Source: an uncultured Candidatus Saccharibacteria bacterium (GTDB taxonomy: Bacteria; Patescibacteriota; Minisyncoccia; Minisyncoccales; CAZUDS01). From it: a DNA stretch of 26,571 nucleotides. Location of the stretch: contig CAZUDS010000001.1 of the NCBI GenBank assembly GCA_964619425.1, forward strand, positions 1 to 26,571. Reading direction: 5' to 3'. The notes below the pieces were generated by a model. That model searched no databases, had not been told where the DNA came from, and worked only from the letters and a program-made list of their open reading frames with translations. Each line of letters opens with the position of its first letter. The first letter of the stretch is position 1. This document shows, one piece after another, positions 11,400 through 26,558 of the stretch. Position numbers and translations under genes: made by a program.

Positions 11400-11468
11400 A
11401 AAAAAATAGCGAACCAGCAAAGATCTGGTTCGCAAAGCGCTTTATTACTTAAAGTCAATAATAAAGAG

Positions 11469-11501: not shown

Positions 11502-11519
11502 ACAATGACTTTAATTGTT

Positions 11520-11990: not shown

Positions 11991-12013
11991 AATAAGCTAA
12001 ACTAACTGCTTTT

Positions 12014-12043
12014 ATTTTATATCAATCCATCAACCCCTGTCAA
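12014..12043 (-). promoter_or_regulatory. Putative sigma70 promoter of greA
   Basis: TTGACA (12043-12038), 18-bp spacer, TAAAAT (12019-12014). Confidence 0.6.
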
Positions 12044-12140
12044 GCGAATGTCCTTAATGGATGTTTATGGCGCTTACTATGGTTTCGGGAAAGCCGCCGG
12101 AGCTTATTCGTGAAGACGAATCGGAGACGCATTGATCGTC

Positions 12141-12169
12141 TTGACAAAAACTACTTAATATAATAATTT
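12141..12169 (+). promoter_or_regulatory. Putative sigma70 promoter of the PBP1A gene
   Basis: TTGACA (12141-12146), 17-bp spacer, TAATTT (12164-12169). Confidence 0.5.
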
Positions 12170-12231
12170 TGAGTTAGTGTTGGGCTTAGGCCTAACACTC
12201 AAACATAGACGCTCACTTCGTTCGCGCCTAT

Positions 12232-12344
12232 ACGCGGATTTATGCTGATTTAGAATTATCCGCTGATTTACGCTGATAAGTAAGGGATTCCTTTTTAATC
12301 AGCGTCTATCAGCGTTAAAAAGTTAATCAGCGTTATATCAGCGT
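12232..12344. repeat. 'Empty' CGCTGAT/ATCAGCG decamer inverted-arm element (4+4 units, 17-bp spacer)
   Basis: acgcggattt atgctgattt..ccgctgattt acgctgataa / aatcagcgt ctatcagcgt..aatcagcgt tatatcagcgt. Confidence 0.9.
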
Positions 12345-12367
12345 ATCGGAATTTTCAAATTCCGATA
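12344..12367. repeat. Perfect hairpin just before the PBP1A start
   Basis: tatcggaattt-tc-aaattccgata, 11-bp arms. Confidence 0.75.
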
Positions 12368-12379
12368 TAAAAACATAAT

Positions 12380-14290
12380 ATGAGAAAAGAAAAAAAGAGG
12401 GGAAATAAAACTATAATAACCTTAAAACTTCTCGGTTTCTGCTTGCTGCTTTTGTTTTTCGGTTGTTTGTTCTTATTTGTCTATTACGCCAAGGACCTGC
12501 CAAGACCAGAAAGGTTTACGGAAAGAGAGTTTTTCCAGACAAGCAAAATTTATGATCGAACGGGCGAAATCCTTTTATACGAACTCTATGGCGAAGAAAG
12601 AAGAACAATAGTTGCCTTAGAAGAAATGCCTGATTTCCTCCAAAAAGCAGTGATAGTAGCCGAAGACGCCAATTTCTATGAACATTTTGGCCTTGACTGG
12701 AGAGGCATCTTACGTTCTGTTATCTTAAACTTAAGAGAAGGCGAGCTTTTGTTTGGCGGCTCAACAATTTCCCAACAACTAATTCGCTCCTCTTTTTTAA
12801 CCAGAGAAAGAACCTTCAGGAGAAAAATTAGGGAAGTGATTTTAACTTTAGAATTAGAAAGGCGTTATTCTAAAGAACAAATCTTGGAGTGGTATCTGAA
12901 CCAGGTTCCTTTTGGCTCAAATACTTATGGCGTAGAGGCAGCCAGCCAAACCTTTTTTGGAAAGCCGGTTTCAGAAATTTCCTTAGCAGAAGCAGCCCTC
13001 TTGGCTTCTTTAATTAGAGCTCCCAGCCGCCTCTCCCCTTATGGCGAACAAAAAGCAGAACTCTTGGCAAGAAAAGATCGTATCTTAGGAAGATTGGCTA
13101 AAAAGGAATATGTTACAGAAGAAGAGGCAGAAAAGGCAAAAAAGGAAGAATTGGTTTTTCAGAAAATTCTTAATCCTATTAGAGCTCCTCACTTCACTCT
13201 CCACGTCAAACAACTTTTAGAAAGAGAATACGGCCGAGAGTTTCTTCAAGAAAGGGGGTTAAAAATTTACACCACCTTGGACTGGGAACTTCAACAAGTG
13301 GCTGAAAAATTGGTTAAAGAAAAAGGAAAGCAAAACGAGCGATTAAGGGCTTTTAATGCTGCTTTAGTTGCTCTTGACCCCAGAAATGGAGAAACCCTGG
13401 CTATGGTTGGTTCAAGAGATTGGTTCGCAGGGTCTTATCCTAAAAATTGTCTTCCTGGAAGAAATTGCCTTTTTGACCCCAAAGTCAATGTTGCCGTTTC
13501 CCTGCCCGGCAGACAACCGGGCTCAGCCTTTAAGCCCTTTGTTTATGCTAAGGCCTTTGCAAGGGGCTATACTGATAAAACTATAGTTATGGATGAAAAA
13601 ACCAATTTTGGCATCTGGGGAGGAGAATCCTATATCCCCCGGAACTTTGACAATAGATTTCGCGGCCCGGTCACCTTAAGACAAGCCCTGGCTCAGTCCC
13701 TTAACGTGCCTTCAGTCAAGGTCTTAGCCCATTTGGCTGGGCTGGAAGAGAGCATAAAAATAGCCAAGGAAATGGGAATTACTACTCTAAATAAACCGGG
13801 CTCTTTTTATGGCTTGGCTTTGGTTTTGGGCGGAGGAGAGGTAAGATTAATAGATATGGTTTCGGCTTATGGCGTTTTTGCTAATAACGGCAAGAGGACA
13901 GAGCCCCAGGTTATCTTAAAAATTAGAGATGACAGGGGCAATATTATTAAAGAAAATCAGGCAACGACTAAAAGGGTCCTATCTTCAAATGTCGCTCGGT
14001 TGGTTTCCGATATCTTGTCTGATAACGCAGCTAGGTCTCCAATGTTTGGCATTAATTCGCCTCTTTACATTAAAGAATTTCCGGTCTCGGTAAAAACCGG
14101 AACCACTGGAAATTTCAGAGATGCTTGGGCAATTGGTTATACTTCCTCTTTAGCGGTCGGCGTTTGGATTGGCAACAGCGACAACTCTCCGACGCTTGGA
14201 GCGGGTGTTGGACTGGCCGCTCCTCTTTGGCGTGAATTTTTTATCAAGGCCTCTGCGAAACATCTTCCTGAAGCCCTTACAAAACCTTAA
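12380..14290 (+). CDS. Class A penicillin-binding protein (PBP1A family; GT51 transglycosylase + transpeptidase)
   Basis: EDANFYEHFGLD, GGSTISQQL, RKIRE, KEQILEWYLN; SxxK (SAFK), SxN (SLN), KTGT; N-terminal TM anchor. Confidence 0.95.
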   Translation: MRKEKKRGNKTIITLKLLGFCLLLLFFGCLFLFVYYAKDLPRPERFTEREFFQTSKIYDRTGEILLYELYGEERRTIVALEEMPDFLQKAVIVAEDANFYEHFGLDWRGILRSVILNLREGELLFGGSTISQQLIRSSFLTRERTFRRKIREVILTLELERRYSKEQILEWYLNQVPFGSNTYGVEAASQTFFGKPVSEISLAEAALLASLIRAPSRLSPYGEQKAELLARKDRILGRLAKKEYVTEEEAEKAKKEELVFQKILNPIRAPHFTLHVKQLLEREYGREFLQERGLKIYTTLDWELQQVAEKLVKEKGKQNERLRAFNAALVALDPRNGETLAMVGSRDWFAGSYPKNCLPGRNCLFDPKVNVAVSLPGRQPGSAFKPFVYAKAFARGYTDKTIVMDEKTNFGIWGGESYIPRNFDNRFRGPVTLRQALAQSLNVPSVKVLAHLAGLEESIKIAKEMGITTLNKPGSFYGLALVLGGGEVRLIDMVSAYGVFANNGKRTEPQVILKIRDDRGNIIKENQATTKRVLSSNVARLVSDILSDNAARSPMFGINSPLYIKEFPVSVKTGTTGNFRDAWAIGYTSSLAVGVWIGNSDNSPTLGAGVGLAAPLWREFFIKASAKHLPEALTKP

Positions 14291-14305
14291 AATTCGCAAC
14301 CCATA

Positions 14306-14366
14306 ATGTTCAGATCCCGGCTTCGAACATTGGTTTTAGCAGTGTTCAGATCCCGGCTTCGAACAT
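14306..14366. repeat. Pair of ATGTTCAGATCCCGGCTTCGAACAT REP-like repeats
   Basis: Copies at 14306-14330 and 14342-14366 (24 of 25 bp identical), between convergent genes. Confidence 0.92.
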
Positions 14367-14656
14367 TCAAGGTAAATAATTTTCTTTAGGGCAGATGTTT
14401 TCAGGGATTTATTTATCCTTTTTTTGGTTTCCTCTTCTTTAAGACGAAGTTTCTGGGACAAAATCGGACTGCTAACCTTTACCTCAAGAATGCCTGCCCT
14501 AAAATGTAGTGGCTGGGCGTTTTTTATATTCTCTCGTCTCAGGATATCCTTTACTTCTTGCTTCCAGGACTGACAAATCCTCAATCCCAAAATTTCCTGC
14601 CAGAAGCCATATTGTCTTACTCTTTTTTCTAAAATTGTCTTAAAAGGGAAAAACAA
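14336..14656 (-). CDS. DUF721 / DciA-like helicase-loader protein
   Basis: W...NAQPLHFRAGILEVKVSSPILSQKLRL...INKSL pattern; directly downstream of dnaN; start (TTG) uncertain; last residues CSKPGSEHC are encoded by the REP. Confidence 0.75.
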   Translation of the reverse strand: MFFPFKTILEKRVRQYGFWQEILGLRICQSWKQEVKDILRRENIKNAQPLHFRAGILEVKVSSPILSQKLRLKEEETKKRINKSLKTSALKKIIYLECSKPGSEHC

Positions 14657-14709: not shown

Positions 14710-15840
14710 TTAGCTTGGCTTAATGGGCATTACAATATAGAAATAATTTTCATCGCCGAATGGTTTTAGGAGCGCCGGGCCTTCTTCTCCGTTAAGTTGA
14801 AAAACAACCTCTGAGGTCTTTATTTTTGAAAGACCGTCTGCTAAGAAACGGTAATTAAAGGACGCTTTTACCGACTCACCTTTAATTTTTCCTGAAAGAG
14901 TTGACTGGTTTTCACCTAACTCAGAACTTTGACTAAAGACCTCAATTAGTCCTTTTTTGGGTATAACTGTTAACTGGGTTTCATTCGCCTTTCCGGAGAA
15001 CAAGCTGGCTGTTTTTATATGGTCAAGAAATTCTCTTTTACTTAAAGTAATCTCTGTTTTGAATTGTTGGGGAATTATTTCTCGGTAATTAGGGTAAGAA
15101 CCCTCAATTAAACGGGAAGTGATTTGAAGTTGGGGATGAGCGGTTTCTTCAGGCATCTCTGTTTCAAACATAATTTGGTTGGGAGAGAAATATATTCTTA
15201 ACTTCCCCTGTTTTTCATCAAGAATATTAATTAATTCTCTGGCTGTTTTAGAGGGTAAAATGATGGCTTGTTCTTTTTCCATTTTTATTTCCTGCGGGAA
15301 AATTATTTTCCTTTCCGCTAATCTAAAAGAGTCAGAGGCCGCCATCAAAATTCTTTTTTCATCAAAAGAAAGATAGATTCCTGATAATTCAGGCCTAATT
15401 TGGGTAATGGCGGCAACATCAGCCACTTGAGATAAACCCTGAATAAAGGTGGAATTATCTACTTCAATAAAGTCCTCTTTGAGTTCCGGAATAATTGGAT
15501 AATCCTCTGGACTTTGGCTTAAAATTTTGCTCTGAAAACTCTTCCCTTGAATTAATAAAACGTTTGCCCTGCTTTCCAACATAATTTTTTCATCAAAAAG
15601 CGAGTCAATTAAACCAGACAAGGTTCGGCCGGGAACAGCAATTTGGCCTTGTTTTTCAATTTTAGCTAAAACCCAATAATGAATGCCTATTTCCAAATCA
15701 GTGGAACTGATTTTAAGAAAGTTTTTTTCGGTTTGCAATAAGATATTATTCAAAATAGGTAAACTAATAGATTTTTGAGTCAATCGGGAAGTAATATTTA
15801 TTCCTTGTTTTAGGTTGTTTTTTAAAATAAGTAATTTCAT
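14710..15840 (-). CDS. dnaN: DNA polymerase III beta sliding clamp
   Basis: LPILNNILL, STDLEIGI, RPELSGIY, ASDSFRLA, RLIEGSYPNY, FNYRFL, IVMPIK. Confidence 0.97.
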   Translation of the reverse strand: MKLLILKNNLKQGINITSRLTQKSISLPILNNILLQTEKNFLKISSTDLEIGIHYWVLAKIEKQGQIAVPGRTLSGLIDSLFDEKIMLESRANVLLIQGKSFQSKILSQSPEDYPIIPELKEDFIEVDNSTFIQGLSQVADVAAITQIRPELSGIYLSFDEKRILMAASDSFRLAERKIIFPQEIKMEKEQAIILPSKTARELINILDEKQGKLRIYFSPNQIMFETEMPEETAHPQLQITSRLIEGSYPNYREIIPQQFKTEITLSKREFLDHIKTASLFSGKANETQLTVIPKKGLIEVFSQSSELGENQSTLSGKIKGESVKASFNYRFLADGLSKIKTSEVVFQLNGEEGPALLKPFGDENYFYIVMPIKPS

Positions 15841-16267
15841 ATTTTTAGACCATTGAATAACTCCCGTTTTTCTACGAAATTATCTATATTTATCTATTTC
15901 TATTCGTCTAATAGGGGCTGATTTACGCTGATAATAACACTGATTTACGCGGAAAAAATTGTTCAACAATCTTAATTATAAATTAAATTAATTATTATAG
16001 TTATTATTAAGGAAAAGATTTTTTGGGAATTATCTTGTTTATTAAAGAATTAGCAGCGTTTCGGTATCTTAAAACTAGTTAAAAAAATAAAGAATTACTT
16101 TGGGAATAAAATTTTATTAAAATTCTTCTCTTTTTATTCAGTATTTTTCCCCAAAAATTCCAGGGCCTTAATATGACAATCCGGAGAAAGTTTTATTTCG
16201 GATTTCCCGCCAAAACACTCCTGAAATACTCAAAAAATACTGTAATTTCTATTTCGTAATTCAAAAA
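15841..16267. other. Candidate oriC segment (dnaA-dnaN intergenic, very AT-rich)
   Basis: Near-pure A/T tract ~15972-16010; DnaA-box-like tgggaatta (16024), tgggaataa (16101), ttttcccca (16145); position between dnaA and dnaN. Confidence 0.5.
15916..15956. repeat. Solitary CGCTGAT decamer arm (4 units)
   Basis: ggctgattt acgctgataa ta acactgattt acgcggaaaa. Confidence 0.8.
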
Positions 16268-17611
16268 TTAATTAAATATTCTTTGTCTTATTAAGCTAAT
16301 TTCTTCGGTTAGGTTTTCGTTTTTTCTCATCTCTCTTTCAATTTTCTTTTTAGCGTAAATAATAGTGGTATGATCTTTATCTTTGAATTTTCTGGCAATT
16401 AAAGGATAAGAACACTTTAGATCCTCTCTTAGTAGATACATAGCAATTTGCCTAGGCCTAACAATTTCTTGCTTTCTTGAGGGGCTTAACACTTCCCTTT
16501 CTTTAAGATCGTAAAATTCGGCCACCACCTGGAGAACTTTCTTAAAATTAGCCACTTTTTTAGGACCGATAACTGTTTTTTTAAGAATGTCTTGGGTCTC
16601 TGTTAATGTTAGCGGGCCGTTTTTCATTTTTTGGCAGACGGCTAATTGATTAACCGCTCCTTCTAACTCTCTAATATTATTTTTAATATTAACCGCAATG
16701 AACTCTAAAATTTCGTCAGAAAGAGAAATGTTTTTTTCTTTAATTTTGATTCCTAAAATAGCCATTCTGGTTTCCAAGTCAGGCGTGCCGATATTGGTCG
16801 TCATACCCCCTCCAAACCGCGAAATCAACCTTTCTTCTAAAACAGAGATGGCTCTCGGCGGCTTATCAGAGGAAAGAACAATCTGTTTATTTCTTTCATA
16901 TAAAACATTAAAGACATGAAAAAATTCTTCCTGGGTTTTTTCTTTGCCAGCCAAGAATTGGACATCGTCAACAATTAGAAAATCTATTTCCCTGTATTTT
17001 ATCTTAAAACTCTCAAGGCCCTGATTTTTAATGGCCGCTACCATATCCGAAGTAAACTTTTCTGATGTTATGTATTTTATTTTTTTGTTGGGGAATTTCT
17101 TTCTATTTTGATTGCCAATTGCTTGCAAGAGATGGGTTTTGCCTAATCCGACACCGCCGTAAATAAATAAAGGGTTATAGGTTAGACCCTGTTTGTCAGA
17201 GACGCACCAGGCAGCAGCATGGGCTAATTCGTTAAAAGAGCCCACGACAAAATTTTCAAACTGATACCTTGGGTTAAGCCCGGACTGCTTTTCAATCGCA
17301 AACTCTCGGAGGTCAAGCTGGGGAGTTTTTTTTAGCGGCAAAAAAGCCCTTTCCTTAATTGTTGGGCCGGCGCTGATAATATATTTTATTTCTTTAATTT
17401 CTGGCGACAATTTATGAAGAGCCCCCAACAAGATTTTATGATATTTATTTTTTAGCCATTCTTTGGAAAAATTATTTGGGACTGAAACAATCATCTGACC
17501 ATCTTTAATATCTGAAATTTTGGTGTTCTTAAACCAAGTAGAAAAGTTGGCTTGGCTAATTTGGAATTGAATTTGGGCTAAAATAGATTGCCACAGTTCT
17601 TTTCCGTCCAT
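16268..17611 (-). CDS. dnaA: Chromosomal replication initiator DnaA
   Basis: WQSILAQI...FSTWF, FENFVVG, YNPLFIYGGVGLGKTHLLQAIG, LIVDDVQF, RELEGA, RPRQIAMYL, DHTT. Confidence 0.98.
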   Translation of the reverse strand: MDGKELWQSILAQIQFQISQANFSTWFKNTKISDIKDGQMIVSVPNNFSKEWLKNKYHKILLGALHKLSPEIKEIKYIISAGPTIKERAFLPLKKTPQLDLREFAIEKQSGLNPRYQFENFVVGSFNELAHAAAWCVSDKQGLTYNPLFIYGGVGLGKTHLLQAIGNQNRKKFPNKKIKYITSEKFTSDMVAAIKNQGLESFKIKYREIDFLIVDDVQFLAGKEKTQEEFFHVFNVLYERNKQIVLSSDKPPRAISVLEERLISRFGGGMTTNIGTPDLETRMAILGIKIKEKNISLSDEILEFIAVNIKNNIRELEGAVNQLAVCQKMKNGPLTLTETQDILKKTVIGPKKVANFKKVLQVVAEFYDLKEREVLSPSRKQEIVRPRQIAMYLLREDLKCSYPLIARKFKDKDHTTIIYAKKKIEREMRKNENLTEEISLIRQRIFN

Positions 17612-17826: not shown

Positions 17827-17893
17827 ATGTTCGAAGCCGGGATCTGAACATCAATAAAAGCGCGCCTGGATGTTCGGAGCCGGGCTTTGAACG
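17827..17893. repeat. Pair of ATGTTC...GAACAT REP-like repeats, inverted orientation
   Basis: Exact reverse-complement copy at 17827-17851; degenerate copy at 17870-17893. Confidence 0.88.
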
Positions 17894-18162: not shown

Positions 18163-18603
18163 ATGCTTCTGAAAAAGAACCGATTAAAAAAGAAAAAGGA
18201 CTTTGAAAGGGTTCTTAAACAGGGCAGTGGTTTCAAAGAAAATTTTTTATTTTTGAAGGTAGCCAAAAACGGCTCAGAGATAAGCAAATTTGGTTTTATA
18301 GTTAGCCGAAAGGTCTCCCAGAGAGCGAACGAAAGAAACAAGCTCAAAAGAAGAATGAGGGAGTTATTGAAAAGCAGGATGTCAAGAATTGAAAAGGGCG
18401 TTGACGTGGTTTTTGTTGCCCAACCCGGCTTACAAGAAAAGAGTTTTGAGGAATTGGAGAAAATCGTAGAAAAGCTACTTCAAAGGTCTGGAATTTTTAT
18501 TATATCGGAAACTGAAAAATCAAGTCCGAAGGACGCAGATTTTTCAGATTTTCCGATTAAGCCCGCTCTACCCCGCCCTCTATGCTCAGAGAATAAAGAT
18601 TAA
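18163..18603 (+). CDS. rnpA: Ribonuclease P protein component, with a C-terminal extension from palindromic DNA
   Basis: NRLKKKKDFERV, KFGFIVSRKV, RANERNKLKRRMRE (RNR-type motif), DVVFVA. Confidence 0.93.
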   Translation: MLLKKNRLKKKKDFERVLKQGSGFKENFLFLKVAKNGSEISKFGFIVSRKVSQRANERNKLKRRMRELLKSRMSRIEKGVDVVFVAQPGLQEKSFEELEKIVEKLLQRSGIFIISETEKSSPKDADFSDFPIKPALPRPLCSENKD

Positions 18604-18714
18604 ACAAAGAGCCTTTAAATTAAACTTAATTTACTCGCATAACCAAAATTCAATACACTTAGAGGGCGGGGTTAGGGCGGAATAGTGCGAAAATTTCTGA
18701 AAGAAATTTTCGCC
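18504..18714. repeat. Cluster of three stem-loops across the rnpA 3' end
   Basis: atcggaaactgaaaaatc..gatttttcagattttccgat (18504-18557); accccgccctcta/tagagggcggggt perfect 13-bp IR (18570-18582/18660-18672); gcgaaaaatttc..gaaattttcgc (18687-18714). Confidence 0.8.
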
Positions 18715-18750
18715 TATGTGCTAACCCCCAGCCCATAATTCATAGCTTTT

Positions 18751-18984
18751 ATGATTAAGACCCTTGTCTTAAATAGTATTAAATTTTACCAAAAAGTTTT
18801 TTCGCCCGACCAAGGAATTTTTAGCTTTTTGTCCAGGAGAGGGGTTTGTCGTTTCTATCCTTCTTGTTCCCAGTACTTCTATTCAGCCGTTAAGAAATAC
18901 GGCATTTTCAGGGGAACTTGGTTAGGAATAAAGAGAATAGTCAAGTGTCATCCATTTAATCCTGGCGGAGTGGACATACCCTAA
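18751..18984 (+). CDS. yidD: Membrane protein insertion efficiency factor YidD
   Basis: [34 protein letters not shown]. Confidence 0.95.
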
Positions 18985-19002
18985 TAATACTTAAAAACAA
19001 CT

Positions 19003-19740
19003 ATGAGTTTTCTTATCCAGGCCTTTAACCTTATATTGTACCAGCCCATTTTGAATGCCCTGATTCTCCTTTATCACTATTTGCCGGGACAGGATTTCGG
19101 TGTGGCGATTATTGTTTTGACTTTGTTAATCAGGGCTTTGCTCTATCCCCTTTCGCGCCAGGCAATTATTTCTCAAAAAGCAATGACCGACCTCCAGCCA
19201 AAAATAAAAGAAATTCAGAAAAAATATAAAAAAGACAGAGAAGGACTGGCAAAAGCAACGATGAATCTTTACAAAGAGGAAAAAATTAATCCTTTTTCCG
19301 GCTGCCTGCCTTTTTTAATTCAAATTCCTATTTTAATTGCTCTTTTTCAGGTTTTCTCGCGAGGGTTTGGGCAAGACCAAATAGGGTTTCTCTATGATTT
19401 TGTCCCCAGTCCGTTAAATGGGTTCGTGCCAAGTTTCCTGGGATTAGTTAATCTTTCCCAGCCCAATTTTATTCTTGCGATTATAGCCGGTTTTCTTCAG
19501 TTTTGGCAGACGAAAATGCTGTCACCTAAAACCAAAAAAACCGGCAATAAAAAGGACGGTCAATCAGTATTCCTTGAACTTTTCCAAAAACAAATGCTTT
19601 ATTTATTTCCTGTTTTTACTTTTATGATTTTATTGGGCTTTCCTTCGGCCCTGGCTCTTTTTTGGGCAGTAACAAGTTTATTTGTTATTGGTCAGCAACA
19701 CTTTTTCTTAAAAACAAAAAAAAATGCAAAACCAATTTGA
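19003..19740 (+). CDS. yidC: YidC/Oxa1 membrane insertase (short form without a large periplasmic domain)
   Basis: DFGVAIIVLTLLIRALLYPL, LQPKIKEIQKKY, INPFSGCLPFLIQIPI, PSALALFWAVTSLF. Confidence 0.96.
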   Translation: MSFLIQAFNLILYQPILNALILLYHYLPGQDFGVAIIVLTLLIRALLYPLSRQAIISQKAMTDLQPKIKEIQKKYKKDREGLAKATMNLYKEEKINPFSGCLPFLIQIPILIALFQVFSRGFGQDQIGFLYDFVPSPLNGFVPSFLGLVNLSQPNFILAIIAGFLQFWQTKMLSPKTKKTGNKKDGQSVFLELFQKQMLYLFPVFTFMILLGFPSALALFWAVTSLFVIGQQHFFLKTKKNAKPI

Positions 19741-20185
19741 TTTGAAAAAAATTAGGGCTGTTTGTCAAGAATTTTTTGAAAAAATGGGTTTTTTAGGGTC
19801 ATTAGAAGTAGGAGAGACCCGAGACAGAACCTTGCCCGTAAGAATAAGGACTGAGGAGCCCCGAATTTTAATTGGTCGAAACGGGCAGACCCTCTCGGAA
19901 ATTCAACATTTATTAAAGGCAGTTCTGCGAAGGAAATTTGGCAGCGATTTTTATCTTGACTTAGATATTAATGGCTACAAGGAGAAAAAAATAGAGTACT
20001 TAAAGGATTTAGCCCAAGTTACAGCTGATGAGGTTTCTTTAAGCAAAAAGCAAAAAACCCTGGCGCCAATGTCCTCTTATGAAAGAAGAATTATTCATCT
20101 TGAATTAGCTGAGCGTCAGGATGTTGTTACCGAAAGCATGGGCCAGGGATTAGAAAGAAGGGTGATAATCAAGCCCGGGTCCTGA
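19724..20185 (+). CDS. jag: Jag/KhpB (EloR-like) KH + R3H RNA-binding protein
   Basis: LIGRNGQTLSEIQHLL (KH), LDINGYK, PMSSYERRIIHLEL (R3H), RRVIIKP. Confidence 0.92.
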   Translation: MQNQFDLKKIRAVCQEFFEKMGFLGSLEVGETRDRTLPVRIRTEEPRILIGRNGQTLSEIQHLLKAVLRRKFGSDFYLDLDINGYKEKKIEYLKDLAQVTADEVSLSKKQKTLAPMSSYERRIIHLELAERQDVVTESMGQGLERRVIIKPGS

Positions 20186-20189
20186 AATA

Positions 20190-20324
20190 ATGTTCAGATC
20201 CCGGCTTCGAACATCCAAGTGGGTACAAATTACAAATGACTTACAAATATACAAATATTTGTATATTTGTATTTATTCGTAATTCGTACACTTTTATTGA
20301 TGTTCAGATCCCGGCTTCGAACAT
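20190..20324. repeat. Composite element: two direct ATGTTC...GAACAT REPs enclosing a TACAAAT/ATTCGTA inverted-arm element
   Basis: Exact 25-mers at 20190-20214 and 20300-20324; perfect 30-bp palindrome tacaaatatacaaat|atttgtatatttgta at 20242-20271; outer arms 20223-20237/20275-20289. Confidence 0.9.
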
Positions 20325-20328
20325 ATAT

Positions 20329-20355
20329 GTCTGGCGGTATTTGATACCGCCAGAC
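20329..20355. repeat. Perfect GC-rich hairpin between convergent genes (REP-like; possible terminator)
   Basis: gtctggcggtat-ttg-ataccgccagac, 12-bp arms. Confidence 0.75.
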
Positions 20356-20361
20356 CTTTGC

Positions 20362-21771
20362 TTAAAATACTTCAAGAACCTGGAGAATTAGAAAGGACTT
20401 GGGTCTAGTGGGTTCAGGCTCAAGCGGCCAATAAAGACGGCCATCTGCTGTATCGCCAAAATTAGGCACATCTGTATGAAACCAATAAGTGTCTCCTCGG
20501 TCCCAGTGCTTTTTATTTCCTGGCTCTGTTGGCCAAAGGAAAACAAGATATTTAACTGATTTGTCCGCATCAATTTCCATTGACAAGGGATACCAGCCAT
20601 TACCCTTTGTTGAAGCAACATTTCGTATTCTTTCGCCAGGCGGCTCACCAGGCACTATCCCATGGTAGAGTCCCGGTTCCTCTCCTTTTAGTTCTGCCAT
20701 TACTCTTTGGCAGCCATATCTTGAGATATTATCGCCGCTTATTTCTAAACATGCTCCTTTGCCTGGGTATTCTCTATCAGGATAATGGTGCTCAAAGAAA
20801 GTTATGCCATCCATACCCGCAGTATAGATAGATTCAGCTGGTCTTTTAAAAAATAACATCGAAAGACAGGGGACATTAAGTCCCGGGTCAGGGATTTCAG
20901 GGTTTAGTACAAAATATTCTATCCTATCTTTCTTGTCCCTCTCTATCAACACACTAGGCCCTGTAAATCTACTATCAAGGATTCTGACTCTTCCTCGGAG
21001 TTCAGGATATTCAAAACAGGCAAGACCATAGTAATGTAAGGCCTCATCTTCATATTTATGTTCAAGCGTTACCGGGTCTCTTATATACTCACGTGTTTCT
21101 GGGTCTATTTTCTTTTTCTTTGGGCTGACAAAAACAAAAGAGTGCATCTCGCCCGTCAAATCAATACTTCCTCCGCCAGCAAGAGGAAATTCTTCCACCC
21201 GGCCAACCTGGGGGATATTTCCAGAAGGTATTCTAATTATTCCAGGCACTCTACTTATTCCTTCTCCGCTTTTTCTTTCCTCTATTAAAAATTTATAATG
21301 CAAATGGACGGGAATTAAAGCTATTCCATCTCTAAAAGAAGCTGGCTCCCCGCCGGGCAGTACTGGTTCTATGGGCTTAGGCATATGAATAACAACTAAT
21401 CCAGGGTCAATGGTATGTAAAATTACCCAGGAACCGAGGAGCAGGGCTAAGCCCAAAAAAGCAGCAATAATTTGTTTTTTGGCTTCTGACTTGGCGGTTG
21501 GACTGCCCAAAGAGATAAGAAAACGGATGCCCCCATAAATCAGAGCGCAAAAAGCAATAATTCCGCCAATAATAACAATAAAATAATAAATATAGAGAGC
21601 CAAACCACCCAGTCCCATATCATGAGTAATTCTGAGCGGTATTCTAAAACCAGGCAGATTCAGCTCAGGATATCTAAGCTGAAGCTCGGCCCGGACTGAA
21701 GCAAAGGGAAAACAGGCGAGAAAAAAGAGAAAAACAAGAAAAAGAATTTTGACTAATTTTTGATAGTCCAT
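20362..21771 (-). CDS. VirB2/TrbC-like (T4SS_pilin) protein A with a long beta-rich C-terminal passenger
   Basis: Signal peptide MDYQKLVKILFLVFLFF; pilin hairpin YYFIVIIGGIIAFCALIYGGIRFLISLGSPTAKSEAKKQIIAAFLGLALLLGSWVILHTIDP; ATG start at 21771 preferred over GTG at 21825, which lies in repeats. Confidence 0.85.
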   Translation of the reverse strand: MDYQKLVKILFLVFLFFLACFPFASVRAELQLRYPELNLPGFRIPLRITHDMGLGGLALYIYYFIVIIGGIIAFCALIYGGIRFLISLGSPTAKSEAKKQIIAAFLGLALLLGSWVILHTIDPGLVVIHMPKPIEPVLPGGEPASFRDGIALIPVHLHYKFLIEERKSGEGISRVPGIIRIPSGNIPQVGRVEEFPLAGGGSIDLTGEMHSFVFVSPKKKKIDPETREYIRDPVTLEHKYEDEALHYYGLACFEYPELRGRVRILDSRFTGPSVLIERDKKDRIEYFVLNPEIPDPGLNVPCLSMLFFKRPAESIYTAGMDGITFFEHHYPDREYPGKGACLEISGDNISRYGCQRVMAELKGEEPGLYHGIVPGEPPGERIRNVASTKGNGWYPLSMEIDADKSVKYLVFLWPTEPGNKKHWDRGDTYWFHTDVPNFGDTADGRLYWPLEPEPTRPKSFLILQVLEVF

Positions 21772-21777
21772 TTTTAA

Positions 21778-21849
21778 GTTGTAGGTTGTAGGTTGTAGGT
21801 TGTAGGTTGTAGAACTACCCTCCACCCTCTACCCTCTACCCCCCATTCT
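21778..21849. repeat. GTTGTAG x5 / CTACCCT x4 opposing heptamer arrays
   Basis: Exact gttgtag x5 at 21778-21812; ctaccct ccaccct ctaccct ctacccc at 21815-21842. Confidence 0.9.
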
Positions 21850-21851
21850 AC

Positions 21852-22514
21852 TTATTTACAGTGAAAATAATCATTGCCATCCCAGGGACAATCAGGAATT
21901 CTGGCAGTTGGGATTCTCATATCCATTAGCCGAAAACAATCATATAAAGAAGTTGTCTCTCTTTGTTCATAAAAAACAGCAAAACTATTGGCAATTTTAA
22001 TATTTTCTTTTAGCAGGTCGTCAAGAGCGGGCTCTAATTCTAAAAGTTTTTTATAGACCCTTTGAAAGCTACGTTTTGCTTCAACAAGTTTATTGTGTTC
22101 CTCTATGATTCTTGATAAATGATAACAAACAGGATATGAACCAAGTTTACAGGGGAGCACCACACATATTGGGAAAACACATATACACTGGCCATCGCAA
22201 TTTGAACTTTTGCAGTCCTGACTAAGAAGAGTTAATTTATGGCTTCTTTTTAGGATTTCTTTGGCTAATTGTTTTAACTCTATTATCAAAGGCAAAAACT
22301 CTTCAAGATGCATTTTTGTTTTAATCAAATGTTCGCCATAAGGAATTTTATCGCAAACATATTCTCTCGGCTTTACCTCTAATCCTTCTCTAACTTCAGG
22401 CGGCATTCCATTAACAATAGCCCTTGCCTGATTTAAGGCAGAGAAAAGGGCTGAACTTAGAAGGCCAATAACCATTATTAAAAATAGTATTTTTTTAAGA
22501 TAAATTTTAGTCAT
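21852..22514 (-). CDS. Secreted Cys-rich helical-hairpin protein E (unknown family)
   Basis: Signal/anchor ILFLIMVIGLLSSALFSA; helix - CKSSNC..CIC..C..C..C loop - helix; ends NDYFHCK; ATG start at 22514 preferred. Confidence 0.8.
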   Translation of the reverse strand: MTKIYLKKILFLIMVIGLLSSALFSALNQARAIVNGMPPEVREGLEVKPREYVCDKIPYGEHLIKTKMHLEEFLPLIIELKQLAKEILKRSHKLTLLSQDCKSSNCDGQCICVFPICVVLPCKLGSYPVCYHLSRIIEEHNKLVEAKRSFQRVYKKLLELEPALDDLLKENIKIANSFAVFYEQRETTSLYDCFRLMDMRIPTARIPDCPWDGNDYFHCK

Positions 22515-22528
22515 TTTTTTAATAGTTT

Positions 22529-22623
22529 TTCCGCGCAAATCTGCGTTTTGATCAGCGTTTTATCTGCTTCTATTGGTTTTTACGTGAATTTGCGCTGATA
22601 TAAACGTTGATTATCGTTGATAA
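22529..22623. repeat. ATCAGCG/CGCTGAT decamer arms in tail-to-tail arrangement
   Basis: atctgcgtt, atcagcgtt, atctgctt (22539-22569) then acgtgaattt gcgctgatat aa acgttgatta tcgttgataa (22582-22623). Confidence 0.75.
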
Positions 22624-22644
22624 TTATAATTTCGTAGTTCAAGA

Positions 22645-23571
22645 TTAGAAATAATGACAATAAAAGTCCAGTTCTGAGCATTCGGCTAAAAAACCTAAAT
22701 GCCTTGCTTCAGCGCAAATCCAGAGATGAGCGGTCATTCTTGTCCGGCAATGACTTATTTGTCTTCGGTAATTGTCAAATTCAATTTGAACTTTGGTTAG
22801 AAGTTTAATTTTTTCTTCTAAAAGCAAAATTTCCTTTTCTAAATCAGGCAGAAGTTGCTCGGCTAATTTTGTCGCGCTGCTACGAATTTGGGGGAGGCAG
22901 CCTCTGTTATCCTGCTTAGGAGGACAAATAGCACAGCATGTAGGACATCCAACCCTACAGTCGCTCCTAAAACTCCCACAATTACATCCCTGAGCAGCCG
23001 TTCTGAGTCCTTTAGCTGTATTGGCTATGTTATGGGGTCCGGTTATTAAATCATTCATTTTCTTAGCAATTGCTAAACTTTGTTTTTCTAAATCATGGAT
23101 TGCCTTAAAAGTTCTTTCAATAGGAATATGGGTTAGGCCTATTTTCCTTGGCGCTACCAGGCCAGGGTCAACTAATTCAGGCCTTTCTAAGGGCCGGACT
23201 GGCAAAATTTCAATTTCCCAAATTACTAATTTTGGGTCAATAGTGCTTAAGATAACATAGGAAGAGAACAAGAGCAAAAGACCCAAAAAGCAAGAAATCA
23301 CTCTTTGCCTTGCTTCTGACATTAATTTAGGATTGCCAAACGAAACAAGATATAAGAAGCCGGCATAAATGAGCAAACCGAGAGACAAAATAACTCCTAA
23401 GACCAAAAGGATTTGGTAAAAATAACGGAGCAGGTCAGGAATTTCTCTAGCCGGCGCTTCAATTCCTGGCAGAGCCGGGAGTTCTATTTCTTGAGCCGAG
23501 ACAATGGAAAAGCAGACGGGAAAAAAGAGAAAAACAAGAAAAAGAATTTTGACTAATTTTTGATAATTCAT
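22645..23571 (-). CDS. VirB2/TrbC-like pilin B fused to a Cys-rich helical-hairpin domain
   Basis: Signal peptide MNYQKLVKILFLVFLFF; LIYAGFLYLVSFGNPKLMSEARQRVISCFLGLLLLFSSYVILSTIDP; 12 Cys in the passenger; ends LDFYCHYF; ATG start at 23571 preferred. Confidence 0.85.
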   Translation of the reverse strand: MNYQKLVKILFLVFLFFPVCFSIVSAQEIELPALPGIEAPAREIPDLLRYFYQILLVLGVILSLGLLIYAGFLYLVSFGNPKLMSEARQRVISCFLGLLLLFSSYVILSTIDPKLVIWEIEILPVRPLERPELVDPGLVAPRKIGLTHIPIERTFKAIHDLEKQSLAIAKKMNDLITGPHNIANTAKGLRTAAQGCNCGSFRSDCRVGCPTCCAICPPKQDNRGCLPQIRSSATKLAEQLLPDLEKEILLLEEKIKLLTKVQIEFDNYRRQISHCRTRMTAHLWICAEARHLGFLAECSELDFYCHYF

Positions 23572-23583
23572 GTTTTTTTGTAT

Positions 23584-23624
23584 GTCGTGGGTTGTAAGAT
23601 GTAGAGCTACCTTCCACCCTCTAC
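23584..23624. repeat. Degenerate homologue of the 21778-21849 heptamer junction
   Basis: gtcgtgg gttgtaa gatgtag agctacct tccaccct ctac. Confidence 0.7.
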
Positions 23625-24308
23625 CTACAAAATCGGGCAAATATAATAGTCCAAACCGCTTTTTTGACATTCAATAAGTTGTCCTTGTTCTGTCCTTAAG
23701 CCGATGCTCTGAGCATGAAAGCAATTAAAAAGCAAGGTTCTTTCAAGGTCTCTTTGCGCCAATTTAGTTCCTGTGTTATTGAGTTTATCTTTTAGTTGGT
23801 CTAATTCAGGCGATAATTCTTCTAAAAGAATGCGTCTGGTTTCTTTGACTTCTTCTTCTAAGTTTCTGGCTTTTTCATAAAGTCTGGCAATTTCCCGTTT
23901 TTGGTAATCTGTAAGTCCGCCGGAACAAGGCCCGCCACAACCACCCTTGCCGCAGTCGCATTCAGAATCCATTCCTCTGCCATCTATGTTACCTGTTAGT
24001 ATTAATTCTCCATTAACTCTCTTATAAAATTGCATCCCGCGTTCTCGGCTTAATATCTGAGATATTTGAACAGTTATTTTGTTTATTTCGGAAAAGTCCT
24101 CCTCGGCCTTTGCTAAAAGTTGAATCATTTCATTTTGGATTTCCAAGGCCCGCTTGGGAATTTGACCTAGAGCCAGGACTGGCTGACATTCACCAATTGT
24201 ATCAACCAGAGAAGAGACCTGTTTTTTGGGCCAGACAAAAAATAGCAGACAAAGGAAAATGGTCAGGACTAAAAAGAGGAAAAGATTTTTTTTCCAGAAT
24301 TTATTCAT
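23625..24308 (-). CDS. Secreted/anchored Cys-rich helical-hairpin protein D (unknown family)
   Basis: N-terminal hydrophobic LFLFLVLTIFLCLLFFVW; helix - CDCGKGGCGGPC loop - helix; ends LDYYICPIL; ATG start at 24308 preferred. Confidence 0.8.
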   Translation of the reverse strand: MNKFWKKNLFLFLVLTIFLCLLFFVWPKKQVSSLVDTIGECQPVLALGQIPKRALEIQNEMIQLLAKAEEDFSEINKITVQISQILSRERGMQFYKRVNGELILTGNIDGRGMDSECDCGKGGCGGPCSGGLTDYQKREIARLYEKARNLEEEVKETRRILLEELSPELDQLKDKLNNTGTKLAQRDLERTLLFNCFHAQSIGLRTEQGQLIECQKSGLDYYICPIL

Positions 24309-24382
24309 TTTACTTTGAATGACGAAATAGAAATTACGAGGACTATTACAGCTGTTCACGCTCTTAATTCAATACAAGGTTT

Positions 24383-24424
24383 CCGCTGATTTACGCTGAT
24401 ATAGGTGCTGATTATCGCTGATTA
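24383..24424. repeat. Solitary CGCTGAT decamer arm (4 units)
   Basis: ccgctgattt acgctgatat ag gtgctgatta tcgctgatta; 19 bp identical to 12260-12278. Confidence 0.85.
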
Positions 24425-24447
24425 TTGTATTTTGTAATTAAAGGATT

Positions 24448-25458
24448 TTAGTCGCCAAAACAATAAAAATATAACGGATTTCTATTACCTATATTAAAAT
24501 GGTCCAAAAAATCTTTTTGCTCTGCCTGGCTATTAATTAAAACATCTTTGCCTCCTTCTAACAAGCAATTACTTAAAATTCTCAGGTCTCGTATTAATTT
24601 TTTGGCTTGTTCTGAGGCGACTGTTTCGGCTATTATTTGCTCAAGTCCAGGCAGAGGTGTTTGGGTGTTGAAGTCCGTTTCTAAAACAATGGCCGGGACA
24701 GTAGGCCAGCGGCAGGATACTGGTGTTGGAGTACCACCAGGGCAAGGGTTACATCTTATGTCGACTGGTCGCCTACAGACTGTGCTGGCATCAGAGCAAT
24801 CTATTGCTTGATGAGGGCCTAGAATCCTTGGTTGGTCTGGTTCTCCTGGAGGCGGTGGTGTGTCATCTTGGTGTCCTTGTCGCCCCGGTTGCTCTAAGGT
24901 TTCAAGCAATCCTAATGTCGCCCGGATTCTTCCAGGCAAGTCAAGCGCCTCAAATTCAAAGATTTTTTCCCTTAAGAAATTAATTGTGTTATCAGTGTTT
25001 TGTTCAAAAGTGGTCAGTTGAGTATAGGACTTTGGCATTACTGGCTCAATTTCAACTCTAATTATTGGAGGGAGTTCCGGCGCTTCTTCTCTTAACTCAA
25101 CCCCGGGAACAGTAAGTTTAGGGTCAATGGTTCTGAGAATAATATAGGAAGAGAACAAGAGCAAAAGACCCAAAAAACAAGAAATCATTCTTTGCCTTGC
25201 CTCTGACATTATTTTAGGGTTGCCAAACGAGGTGAGATACAGAAAGCCGGCATAGATTAGCATGGCCAGGGCTATAAGGGCGCCGACAAATAAAAAGAAA
25301 TGATAAATATAGACAGCAAGTTCTTCAAGAGAAACGCCTATCCCAGGAGTGACGACTCCCGGAATGTCCGGCCATTCTATCTCTAATTCGCGACCAAAGA
25401 TAAAAGCCGGCAAAAACAGGAATAAAATCATTAAGAGTAAAGGGATTAGTTTTTTCAT
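24448..25458 (-). CDS. VirB2/TrbC-like pilin C fused to a Cys/Pro-rich helical passenger
   Basis: MKKLIPLLLMILFLF signal; LIYAGFLYLTSFGNPKIMSEARQRMISCFLGLLLLFSSYIILRTIDP; ends LYFYCFGD; the ATG at 25458 overlaps the upstream TGA (ATGA). Confidence 0.85.
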   Translation of the reverse strand: MKKLIPLLLMILFLFLPAFIFGRELEIEWPDIPGVVTPGIGVSLEELAVYIYHFFLFVGALIALAMLIYAGFLYLTSFGNPKIMSEARQRMISCFLGLLLLFSSYIILRTIDPKLTVPGVELREEAPELPPIIRVEIEPVMPKSYTQLTTFEQNTDNTINFLREKIFEFEALDLPGRIRATLGLLETLEQPGRQGHQDDTPPPPGEPDQPRILGPHQAIDCSDASTVCRRPVDIRCNPCPGGTPTPVSCRWPTVPAIVLETDFNTQTPLPGLEQIIAETVASEQAKKLIRDLRILSNCLLEGGKDVLINSQAEQKDFLDHFNIGNRNPLYFYCFGD

Positions 25459-25859
25459 GATGAGTGTTTTAATTCTAAATAAATTAATATTGTCCACCAG
25501 GTAAAACTTTCAAAAACAAGAACAGGAATAAACTCAAAAATAACAAGAAGCGGTCTGAGCCATCTCATTTTTTTTGCCCACTTCATCGCCCCAACCAACC
25601 TCTTTCCTGTTTTGGCTGGAACCCTTACGGCCCCAGATCTAAAAAGCATCCAAGCGCCAAAAAACAGAAGAGCGAAGATGTCAATGACAAATGAAATTGC
25701 TAGACCAACTACTGGAATCAAGTCAAAGAAAAATTCTGCCACATCAACAGAAACAGCTGTCGTCATCATAAGTACTCCTTCCGGGCTCCATAAAGCGTTA
25801 ATGCCGCTAATATGCTCCTGCCTGGCGCCTTCCTTTTCTATTGTAGCTGTTTCGGTCAT
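25455..25859 (-). CDS. Small multi-pass membrane protein heading the pilin array
   Basis: Hydrophobic segments with DLIPVVG and EFIPVLVFESFTWWT; translationally coupled to pilin C. Confidence 0.75.
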   Translation of the reverse strand: MTETATIEKEGARQEHISGINALWSPEGVLMMTTAVSVDVAEFFFDLIPVVGLAISFVIDIFALLFFGAWMLFRSGAVRVPAKTGKRLVGAMKWAKKMRWLRPLLVIFEFIPVLVFESFTWWTILIYLELKHSS

Positions 25860-25999
25860 AACGTGTCAAACCATTTAACTATTATAACTGCTTTGGTCAG
25901 ATATTTGATAGATTGACGCATTAAGTCATCTAAAATGTAAGTGAAATGGTATTGTTGGGTCATCTAAAAATACTTTGGGTGTCGCATGTTCAACTTTTT

Positions 26000-26065
26000 A
26001 AATTCCAAATTCCAAGCACCAAATTCCAAATAAATTTCAATATTCAATGACCAAATGACCAAAAC
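26000..26065. repeat. CCAAAT heptamer arm downstream of the four-helix-bundle gene
   Basis: aaattcc aaattcc aagcacc aaattcc...caatgaccaaatgaccaaaac; abuts the stop at 26066; its reverse complement shares 21 exact bp with 9643-9663. Confidence 0.92.
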
Positions 26066-26428
26066 TTATTTAGATTTTTCTATTATTGAAGAAAATATCT
26101 TTTTTAATTCTATTGCCTCTTTTAGAAGTTCTTCGCCTTCTTTTTTGAATTTCTCCTCATCGGTCTCAATTATTAGTCTCAACCAATGAACCGATTCTTT
26201 TGCTTCTTTCCTACATATTTTTATTCTCATTCTAAAGTCCTTTTTGCTAAATGACTCGTTAGCTTCGATGTAATTCGCTCCCACTGAACCCGATGATCTA
26301 ATTACTTGCCTCACATATTCAATGTTACTAATAGTTCTAGACAATTTCTTGCAGAAAAGAGCAACTTTCTTTGCAAATTGGTAGGTTCTTTCTTCTAAAT
26401 CGTATTTATTTCTCGTTGTTTCGGTCAT
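26066..26428 (-). CDS. Four-helix-bundle protein (23S rRNA IVP / bAvd-like family)
   Basis: YDLEERTYQFA, RQVIRSSGSVGANYIEA, SKKDFRMRIKICRKEAKESVHWL, ELLKEAIELKKIFSSI. Confidence 0.95.
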   Translation of the reverse strand: MTETTRNKYDLEERTYQFAKKVALFCKKLSRTISNIEYVRQVIRSSGSVGANYIEANESFSKKDFRMRIKICRKEAKESVHWLRLIIETDEEKFKKEGEELLKEAIELKKIFSSIIEKSK

Positions 26429-26558
26429 TGGAATTTGGTTATTGAATATTATTTGGTATTTGGTGCTTGGTGCTTGGAATTTCTTGTTTCAAAATTTCGG
26501 TCATTGGAATTTGGTTATTGAATATTATTTGGAATTTGGTATTTGGTGCTTGGAATTT
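26418..26558. repeat. Duplicated ATTTGG heptamer arms upstream of the four-helix-bundle gene
   Basis: Arms at 26418-26482 and 26495-26558 share an exact 38-mer (26419-26456 = 26495-26532); the first arm contains the gene's ATG. Confidence 0.92.

Follow-up and report, generated by a model that had tools for sequence, protein, structure and literature searches.

Arrays of VirB2-like pilin genes close to dnaA were published in 2025 for the T4SS (type IV secretion system) gene clusters of Patescibacteria (Quinonero-Coronel et al. 2025, PMC12102498). Such an array is defined there by at least two pilin genes that are located in tandem or one non-pilin gene apart. A six-pilin array is known from Southlakia epibionticum ML1 (Wang et al. 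2023, as cited in PMC12857230), and the pilin array is essential in this species (PMC12857230). The locus described here is located in a stretch of 26,571 nucleotides of an uncultured Candidatus Saccharibacteria bacterium (contig CAZUDS010000001.1, positions 1 to 26,571; referred to as the window). It carries three pilin genes, here named PilA, PilB and PilC, and two genes for Cys-rich proteins, here named D and E.

We read this locus as the distal, surface-protein end of a Patescibacteria T4SS gene cluster beside the replication origin, with an ancient and fixed gene order and with conversion tracts of later date, and assign a probability of roughly 0.7 to this reading. The locus belongs to the published class of VirB2-like arrays. 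It contains three PF18895 (T4SS_pilin) genes spaced by the single genes D and E, and its site is chromosomal and near dnaA, dnaN and rnpA. Pilin genes spaced by non-pilin genes, the position beside dnaA/dnaN/rnpA and a small genome of the monoderm type are shared with the published arrays. The paralogues are very divergent in both, with 39-50% identity in the membrane hairpin here and a published mean of 25% (PMC12102498).

An earlier note on this DNA had described a tandem module of 1.8 kb whose passenger genes are diversified by recombination. The gene order and the repeat numbers given there were all reproduced, and its reference to the VirB2-like pilin arrays of Patescibacteria holds: PF18895 proteins are encoded here, and the array class is published. 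What became of its further claims is given with the respective results.

Genetic composition of the array

The genes are arranged on the minus strand in the order PilC, D, PilB, E, PilA. All five were complete and have a start and a signal peptide of their own. PilC (25458-24448) encodes 336 amino acids (aa) with a signal peptide, a VirB2-like two-helix membrane hairpin and a Cys-containing helical ectodomain ending in ..LYFYCFGD. In PilB (23571-22645, 308 aa) a disordered linker connects signal peptide and VirB2-like hairpin to the ectodomain, a coiled-coil hairpin that has a Cys-rich apex and ends in ..ELDFYCHYF. The largest protein, PilA (21771-20362, 469 aa), has the same signal peptide and VirB2-like hairpin and a different ectodomain of ~330 aa. 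D (24308-23625, 227 aa) is helical, carries an N-terminal signal or anchor sequence and 9 Cys and ends in ..GLDYYICPIL. E (22514-21852, 220 aa) is a secreted paralogue of D with an N-terminal signal or anchor sequence, 11 Cys and the end ..NDYFHCK.

The three pilins share a signal peptide, two long hydrophobic helices with a short basic loop, a TIDP motif and a long C-terminal part. Their PF18895 scores in Pfam were 30.4 (PilA), 26.7 (PilC) and 25.2 bits (PilB), the curated cut-off being 26.6 bits. Across the pilin domain PilB and PilC were 50% identical.

A sixth gene, M134 (25455-25859, minus strand), encodes a small polytopic membrane protein of 134 aa, and its stop overlaps the start of PilC (ATGA). 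M134 was the best conserved protein among the six. It had no match in Pfam or NCBIfam and no BLAST similarity to the ~150-aa membrane proteins of Saccharibacteria-type clusters.

Genomic setting

The window represents a Patescibacteria-type chromosome around the replication origin. The array begins right after jag, and it is flanked by dnaN (14710-15840), dnaA (16268-17611), rnpA (18163-18603) and yidC-jag (19003-20185), the last directly beside PilA; a DciA-domain gene is also found among the genes of the origin region. By a degenerate-pattern scan, six distant relatives were found among metagenome-assembled genomes (MAGs) of Saccharibacteria and other Patescibacteria with a single PF18895 gene each. 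In these relatives the PF18895 gene occupies the corresponding chromosomal site and follows the genes for PrgI (VirB3-like) and a VirB4-like ATPase, abutting yidC-rnpA-dnaA. Such an arrangement has been published for Patescibacteria. Furthermore, a TrbL/VirB6 gene (divergent) adjoins the M134 orthologue in the NCBI MAG L017.

Conservation of the gene order in distant genomes

An exhaustive profile search was dominated by the pilin domain, with 18,436 proteins that contain it, among them full-length relatives of PilB (ending in ..ELDFYCCP) and PilC (ending in ..LDFYC..). In L017 six genes of 117, 298, 257, 391, 337 and 516 aa correspond, in this order, to M134, PilC, D, PilB, E and PilA. The identities of the best matches were 44% for M134, 32% for PilC, 28.5% for D (214 aa), 30% for PilB, 29-38% for E and 33% over the full length for PilA. 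The gene order in a further genome, L018, was the same as in L017, but PilC and D were fused into one protein of 517 aa. The M134 counterpart of L018 shared 37% identity, and E and PilA orthologues were present there too. Full-length orthologues of PilC (32-33%) and orthologues of PilB (30-33%) were found in both genomes. Altogether the identities ranged from 28 to 44%, with E-values of 1e-12 to 1e-48.

Since distant genomes contain a separate orthologue of every gene, with the order kept and 28-44% identity, the duplication is old. Judged from these sequences, the alternation of pilin and Cys protein stems from an ancient duplication and is now a fixed gene order. A recent tandem duplication of 1.8 kb was rejected, as an orthologue of every gene was present in L017 and L018 with the order kept. 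Of the earlier proposal of duplication plus segmental recombination, the duplication is thus not a recent one; segmental gene conversion between paralogues is supported by the synonymous-site and site-pattern tests described below.

L017 additionally contained three PilA-type genes in tandem (7972-12488; 516, 513 and 359 aa, the last without a called N-terminus), which were 70-84% identical in short stretches. The PilA type is thus the one with a recent amplification in L017.

A closer relative was found in the same metagenome. The contig L001 shared 75% nucleotide identity with the window and was colinear from the heptamer spacer via PilB and the decamer spacer into E. The PilB orthologue P0002 had 69% identity, and an E orthologue was present in L001. 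In L017 and L018 there was almost no intergenic DNA, and neither decamer or heptamer arrays nor high-identity tracts between the PilA, PilB and PilC types were found.

A family of ectodomains

The earlier note had called the passengers barely alignable. This is correct at the DNA level but not at the protein level, where the sequences are remote homologues. Profile-profile comparisons with HHalign, which drew on orthologues from distant genomes, matched D with E (96.6% probability, 188 columns), D with the PilB ectodomain (95.9%, colinear end to end) and the PilB with the PilC ectodomain family (88.6%). Five invariant Cys columns and a C-terminal D[YF][YF]xC motif were common to the whole family. 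Because of these matches and of the shared Cys columns and motif, D and E are free-standing relatives of the pilin ectodomains.

The PilA ectodomain (~330 aa) is unrelated to those of PilB and PilC and to D and E, and it had no sequence match in Pfam, NCBIfam or the PDB. For D and E no credible match was obtained in Pfam or NCBIfam; there were only weak matches to unrelated families, far below the curated cut-offs. Word-indexed homologue searches with D and E returned only D and E themselves.

PilB was modelled with AlphaFold2 on the basis of 14 family members, and the mean predicted local distance difference test (pLDDT) value was 78. The model consists of a signal helix (H3-26) and a membrane hairpin (H44-76/H81-111) with pLDDT values of 80-89 and the loop NPKLMSEARQR. 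After the disordered linker the ectodomain forms a long antiparallel helical hairpin (H151-194/H225-277) with a less confident Cys-rich apex (residues 195-224) and a small sheet at the base, which includes the C-terminal ..DFYC.. strand. The best, non-significant Foldseek match of the model was the prefoldin-type hairpin of PDB 1fxk (probability 1.0, target template modelling (TM) score 0.68, E = 0.21, 14% identity). The coiled-coil hairpin of prefoldin resembles PilB in its two long antiparallel helices closed by short strands at the base. However, prefoldin is a cytoplasmic chaperone without cysteines, unlike PilB, and the likeness is one of shape only. A VirB5/TraC match of the PilB ectodomain model, a homologue of D and E, was not found in the PDB by Foldseek. 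A VirB5-like or other known fold for the ectodomain was rejected, there being no significant Foldseek match.

Tracts of near-identity between the pilin genes

Two segments of the pilin genes were far more alike than the rest. PilA and PilB share an exact segment of 46 bp (21720-21765 and 23520-23565; 46/46), for which ~1e-17 occurrences would be expected by chance in 6 kb. According to the repeat finder, the similarity around it extends over 74 nt at 89%, or over ~130 nt at 83% when the upstream heptamer region is included. PilB and PilC matched at 118 of 137 positions (23234-23370 and 25121-25257, 19 mismatches), including an exact run of 33 nt, and here the similarity extends to 195 nt at 78%. 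Together with the colinear intergenic repeats at offsets of ~1800 bp this corresponds to the numbers reported earlier. We delimited the PilA copy of the PilA/PilB tract to 21702-21833 (partner 23502-23625; ~130 bp), covering the heptamer spacer and signal-peptide codons 1-23, and the PilB copy of the PilB/PilC tract to 23230-23424 (partner 25117-25311; ~140-195 bp), covering the membrane hairpin. Both are on the minus strand.

The PilB orthologue of L001 allowed a comparison of synonymous substitutions per synonymous site (dS) inside and outside these tracts. In residues 27-62 and 114-130, dS of PilB was 0.39-0.80, and so low, against the orthologue but saturated in the comparisons with PilA and PilC; the sites at which PilB equals the orthologue outnumbered those at which it equals PilC by 41:8 and 23:5, respectively. 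In the hairpin core (residues 63-113), dS between PilB and PilC was 0.73 and thereby lower than between PilB and its orthologue (1.14), whereas dS between PilB and PilC was saturated in both flanks. The site patterns of the core were star-like (18:14:9), and PilA was saturated against both PilB and PilC. For the signal segment we obtained a dS of 0.39 between PilA and PilB and of 0.13 between PilA and the orthologue, again with saturated flanks. The change from orthologue-like to star-like site patterns within the tracts was significant (Fisher p = 4e-5 and 1e-4).

In the signal segment, 7 synonymous positions distinguish the L001 orthologue from PilB, and in the core 21. Since the orthologue differs at these positions, synonymous sites are free to change in the tracts, and for this reason the near-identical tracts are best read, as the simplest explanation of the sequences, as lineage-specific short-tract gene conversion between old paralogues.

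Alternatively, selection at the nucleotide level could keep the tracts alike without any exchange of DNA, by way of translation initiation, of an RNA element or of the codons preferred for signal peptides and membrane helices. Such a constraint would fit the start MNxQKLVKILF, which is conserved as protein in PilA, PilB, P0002 and P0003, the AT-rich signal tract at the 5' end of the coding sequence, and the hairpin core as the most constrained segment, with a ratio of non-synonymous to synonymous rates (dN/dS) of 0.13. It does not account for the 7 and 21 synonymous differences of the L001 orthologue, nor for PilA, which shares the hairpin function and yet has a saturated dS in the core against both other pilins. 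Folding of the RNA was at the level of shuffled sequences, without an Rfam match. We therefore regard selection of this kind as improbable.

Gene conversion, then, homogenises the signal peptide of PilA and PilB and the hairpin of PilB and PilC, which is the export and assembly module, and leaves the tips undiversified. The earlier suggestion that conversion diversifies the tips is not supported, the tracts being located in signal peptide and membrane hairpin. Chimeric tips or silent cassettes were not found.

A collapse of repeats by the assembler is not the cause of the repeats, because the sequence was reproduced in three independent Joint Genome Institute (JGI) assemblies and in two runs: the window was recovered at 100% identity in JGI contigs of two further samples (L003 and L016) and in Logan contigs of two runs. 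The 46-nt repeat was also seen as a separate unitig of 46 nt.

Selection on the array

Pairwise dN/dS (Nei-Gojobori) was between 0.13 and 0.39, i.e. below 1, in every segment including the ectodomains. These values compare two sequences per gene and apply to whole segments. The most constrained protein segment was the PilB hairpin (0.13); the values were 0.17-0.36 for the segments of the PilB ectodomain, 0.36 for E and 0.24 between two alleles of D. The ectodomains diverge under purifying selection, and these pairwise estimates gave no sign of diversification (dN/dS above 1) in the exposed part. The comparison of scaffold and passenger that the earlier note had proposed as a check gave values below 1 for both.

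These data bear on the view of the locus as a recent 1.8-kb cassette, in which scaffolds and repeats serve as recombination sites for the shuffling of passenger tips, resulting in antigenic or host-range variation as in pilE/pilS or Bartonella trw. It is true that the repeats are offset by 1800 and 1801 bp and that the identity is mosaic, strains do differ in a block of the locus, and host adaptation has been proposed for such arrays in the literature. However, the orthologue of its own that each gene has in the same order at 28-44% identity speaks for an old duplication, and the identical tracts are confined to signal peptide and hairpin. Chimeric tips and promoterless cassettes were not found, and dN/dS was 0.13-0.39 in all segments. 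Moreover, the strain difference described in the next section resembles an allele of the same gene with 13-19% divergence and not a patch derived from a paralogue. Tip shuffling is therefore an unlikely explanation, and the designation as an antigenic or host-range variation locus is not upheld. As evidence against its own idea the earlier note had named an array that is invariant in order and sequence with passengers under purifying selection; the order was indeed invariant and the selection purifying, but the sequence was far from invariant. We keep to the reading of old, fixed genes with later conversion.

Two haplotypes of PilC and D

A strain-variable block (23888-25465, minus strand) reaches from the PilC start to the first two thirds of D, with alleles 13-19% apart in the two parts that were recovered. 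The contig L004 from another sample was identical to the window over 5.2 kb (18688-23887) and then showed 68 differences, all within 23888-24245, where the contig ends. In D codons 22-141, these 68 positions amount to 19% and to 32 non-synonymous and 24 synonymous codon changes. The substitutions were mixed (G>A 18, C>T 11, A>G 10 and others) and spread across 360 bp of the N-terminal two thirds.

Both D alleles were present in run X1, at depths of ~6x and ~10x. The same run contained a second PilC allele over codons 1-65 (~13% different, 10 aa changes) at ~6x, compared with ~7x for the allele of the window. Upstream of the PilC alleles a single contig was found in X1, with a depth of about the sum of both. 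Run X2 contained the window alleles only.

The presence of two PilC-D haplotypes in otherwise identical DNA points to allele replacement by homologous recombination, and a block that was imported or long maintained as divergent is supported. With regard to the strain comparison called for earlier, strains do differ in the PilC-D block, but chimeras were not seen. Mutagenesis of D by a diversity-generating retroelement was rejected, since all kinds of substitutions occurred, with the changes spread over the N-terminal two thirds and with 24 synonymous cases among the 56 changed codons; neither a reverse transcriptase nor a template repeat was found in the window. A deletion variant without D, PilB, E and PilA (joint 24445->20257) was rejected as well. 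The short side of the joint was only 31-32 nt, and the joint continues into a further copy of the TACAAATA repeat. For L016 this deletion had initially been suspected, but the contig was 100% identical to the window.

Part of this picture could in principle be an artefact of metagenome assembly, namely collapsed repeats or chimeric joins of strains. The source is a metagenome, the contigs L004 and L016 both break inside the variable block, within the variable part of D, and several graph joints with sides of 31 nt were clearly caused by repeats. Against this, the window was found at 100% in the JGI and Logan contigs mentioned above, and the mosaic D allele is contained in a JGI contig and also in an independent Logan contig of 713 nt that crosses the breakpoint. 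An artefact thus has hardly any probability, and the two haplotypes are taken as real.

Intergenic repeats

The spacer between PilC and D (24309-24447, minus strand) carries an element resembling a miniature inverted-repeat transposable element (MITE), with ATCAGCG arrays at a spacing of 10 bp and the terminal motif TTGAATGACGAAATAGAAAT at 24315-24334. A second, more degenerate copy with an ATCAGCG/ATCAACG array is located in the spacer between PilB and E (22515-22644, minus strand). The two decamer regions (22582-22623 and 24383-24424) matched at 31 of 42 positions, or at 76% over 54 nt, with an offset of 1801.

ATCAGCG arrays were also present at four other places in the window: at 12231-12344 (between greA and the penicillin-binding protein gene, both orientations), at 15917-15950 upstream of dnaN, upstream of tsaE (short) and at 3533-3579 in frame within a 5'-3' exonuclease gene. 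One count of the ATCAGCG arrays gave five sites in the window. The terminal motif TTGAATTACGAAATAGAAAT was common to the copies after PilC, after dnaA and before tsaE (3 found, 0.01 expected). At the PilB-E site of L001 (1034-1215) the interior of the element was inverted, and the contig depth over the decamer element was 5-10 times that of its flanks, as expected for a multi-copy element. The decamer arrays thus behave as a MITE-like element of dispersed occurrence, whose position after the two pilin genes PilC and PilB is incidental, and not as a module-specific scaffold; the earlier note had counted them as part of the module. The element may carry promoter or protein-binding sites. It measures ~135 nt, can be oriented either way and in most cases is located 40-110 nt upstream of a start codon; its sites in the window include 15841-16267 and 5783-5809.

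The remaining two spacers contain heptamers. Between D and PilB (23572-23624, minus strand) degenerate heptamers of the type GTAGAGG.. are followed by CTACATC TTACAAC CCACGAC (fold z = -1.0). Between E and PilA (21772-21851, minus strand) G-rich heptamers TAGAGGG/TGGAGGG (G3N4 x4) precede five perfect CTACAAC units (fold z = -0.9). The two spacers were 85% identical over 48 nt (21786-21833 and 23578-23625). On the forward strand the perfect array reads GTTGTAG x5 (21778-21812), and the CTACAAC units end 6 nt before the PilA ATG. Within the window, heptamers of the CTACAAC type were confined to the sites before PilA and PilB; a perfect array also precedes the L001 PilB orthologue, and an inverted one was found in L002. 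Heptamer and octamer arrays in general are common across the window and belong to a genome-wide class of short tandem repeats.

The five perfect units so close to the PilA start, the arrays in L001 and L002 and the G-rich half, which could form an mRNA quadruplex, would suit slipped-strand contingency switches that toggle single pilins. Yet length variants were absent from the contigs of two runs or three assemblies (contigs only), the copy before PilB is degenerate, L017 and L018 have no such repeats, and similar heptamer arrays occur across the window, even in frame in tsaE. A switch function is accordingly very improbable, and membership in the genome-wide repeat class is the reading we retain. 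RNA structure in the spacers was rejected by a shuffle test and Rfam: the folds were no better than those of shuffled sequences (z -1.75 to +1.04), and no Rfam match was obtained.

Two in-frame repeats were observed. In tsaE (5396-5438) six heptamers (TAGAGAG/TAGAGGG) encode HPLSSTLYSLPSTLY just before the TsaE HxDxYR motif. In the exonuclease gene (3533-3579) three ATCAGCG decamers and a 7-bp hairpin encode NQRPLPKAVLISVNQR. A further repeat of 23-34 nt, GTTCAGATCCCGGCTTCGAACAT, was found in at least 6 copies (20186-20334, 14303-14371, 17827-17860). Between jag and PilA, an octamer palindrome (TACAAATA.../...TATTTGTA) is enclosed by two copies of this type. The contig depth there was 30-60 times that of the flanks, so the repeat is very abundant in the sample.

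Other features of the window

A 23S_rRNA_IVP (four-helix-bundle) gene (26066-26428) is flanked by inverted arms of 65 nt built from heptamers (25992-26497). In both runs contig joins from 26056 to 26528 and from 26070 to 26493 were present; therefore forms without this gene exist. The gene and its arms look like a small mobile or excisable cassette, and a similar pair of arms without cargo was located at 9540-9720. Among the housekeeping genes there were a gene for an IS200-like Y1 transposase (4414-5139) and one for a PD-(D/E)XK_3 nuclease (6938-7339), a kind that often accompanies 23S rRNA intervening-sequence proteins. The 449-aa HD_3 protein encoded at 10086-11435 is a tandem fusion of two HD domains.

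Strength of the T4SS assignment

The best sigma-70-like match of the region (25840-25869, minus strand; TTGACA-18-TACAAT, 11/12, a consensus match only) is located just upstream of, or overlaps, the first M134 ATG, and a terminator-like hairpin of 12 pairs (20329-20355, minus strand) follows 3' of PilA.

Several observations weigh against the interpretation as the distal end of a T4SS cluster with old genes and later conversion. No virB4, virB3/prgI or virB6 gene is present within the 26.6-kb window, whose contig ends 0.7 kb upstream of M134, and we infer the T4SS linkage from synteny in relatives. PilB stays just below the PF18895 cut-off (25.2 against 26.6 bits), and neither its model nor its ectodomain had a significant Foldseek match. 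The six genes look like one operon, but this operon structure is a guess from the sequence. For the tracts, the argument uses one close orthologue, that of PilB in L001, without PilA and PilC of that lineage, and the dS values were estimated on segments 26-51 codons long. Evidence for the second haplotype comes from assembled contigs and not from single reads across the whole block; the middle of this haplotype was not recovered, we infer the linkage of its two parts, and its upstream boundary is based on contig depth.

Possible function

The following scheme is put forward for the locus. Transcription would run from the promoter-like site (25869-25840) to the hairpin (20355-20329), and further starts might be located in the spacers. 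Sec/YidC would insert the pilin-domain proteins, and the T4SS would present or assemble them. D and E might pair with or cap the coiled-coil ectodomains of the pilins, and the cysteines might form extracellular disulfides. With the ectodomains diverging, conversion would maintain uniformity in the module for export and assembly that the pilins share, and the PilC-D haplotypes could alter the recognition of host or partner. Because PilC and D are fused in L018, it can be argued that both act together. Taken as a whole, a VirB2-like hairpin as common handle for three ectodomains, D and E pairing to give a heteromeric, disulfide-locked tip, conversion that keeps the handle uniform, and PilC-D allele replacement that sets the host make up a doubtful proposal, which we offer as tentative.

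Patescibacteria depend on host bacteria, and T4SS and pilin array are essential for epibiotic growth in one species tested. In this context the locus provides testable leads on host recognition; it does not overturn current views. In one clade the array is not a pool of variants that can replace each other; it is a fixed set of distinct components, namely three ectodomains anchored by a pilin domain and two paralogues that are free, one of which occurs fused to a pilin elsewhere. The N-terminal handle kept uniform by conversion would mark the part that must fit a common machine. Finally, the strain difference in PilC and D within identical DNA nominates this pair as specificity determinant.

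Comparison with known systems

The proteins PilA, PilB and PilC, with 308-469 aa and large ectodomains, are unlike the classical VirB2, a small mature pilus subunit. Multiple pilin copies in a T4SS locus are also found in the Trw system of Bartonella (tandem trwL = virB2, with trwJ-I-H = virB5 and others) and among the virB2 paralogues of Anaplasma. The locus further shares with Bartonella Trw a second, secreted pilus-associated component and an alternating or tandem layout, an arrangement that is thought to widen target binding. In contrast, Bartonella and Anaplasma are diderm and have small VirB2 proteins in recent, similar copies, whereas the copies here are ancient, with a separate orthologue for each. 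For D and E no match to VirB5/TraC was obtained in Pfam or NCBIfam, nor in the fold comparison, which was made with the homologous PilB ectodomain model.

Short-tract gene conversion gives concerted evolution of bacterial paralogues, for example in tufA/tufB, Neisseria opa and pilE/pilS. As in these systems, the tracts described here are short, include synonymous sites and render paralogues of one genome closer to each other than orthologues are. Unlike there, they are located in conserved export and assembly segments, an expression locus with silent donors is absent, and there is no sign of new variants arising from conversion. Silent or partial donors as in pilE/pilS were not present; the five genes are complete, and each has an orthologue.

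Compared with the published arrays of Patescibacteria, several features appear to be new details, as they are undescribed in PMC12102498. These are the ectodomain of 190-330 aa on every pilin domain and the ectodomain family with its free paralogues, the interleaved genes being homologues of one of the ectodomains; the six-gene order kept in distant genomes; the conversion tracts; and the haplotype block with its two co-occurring haplotypes.

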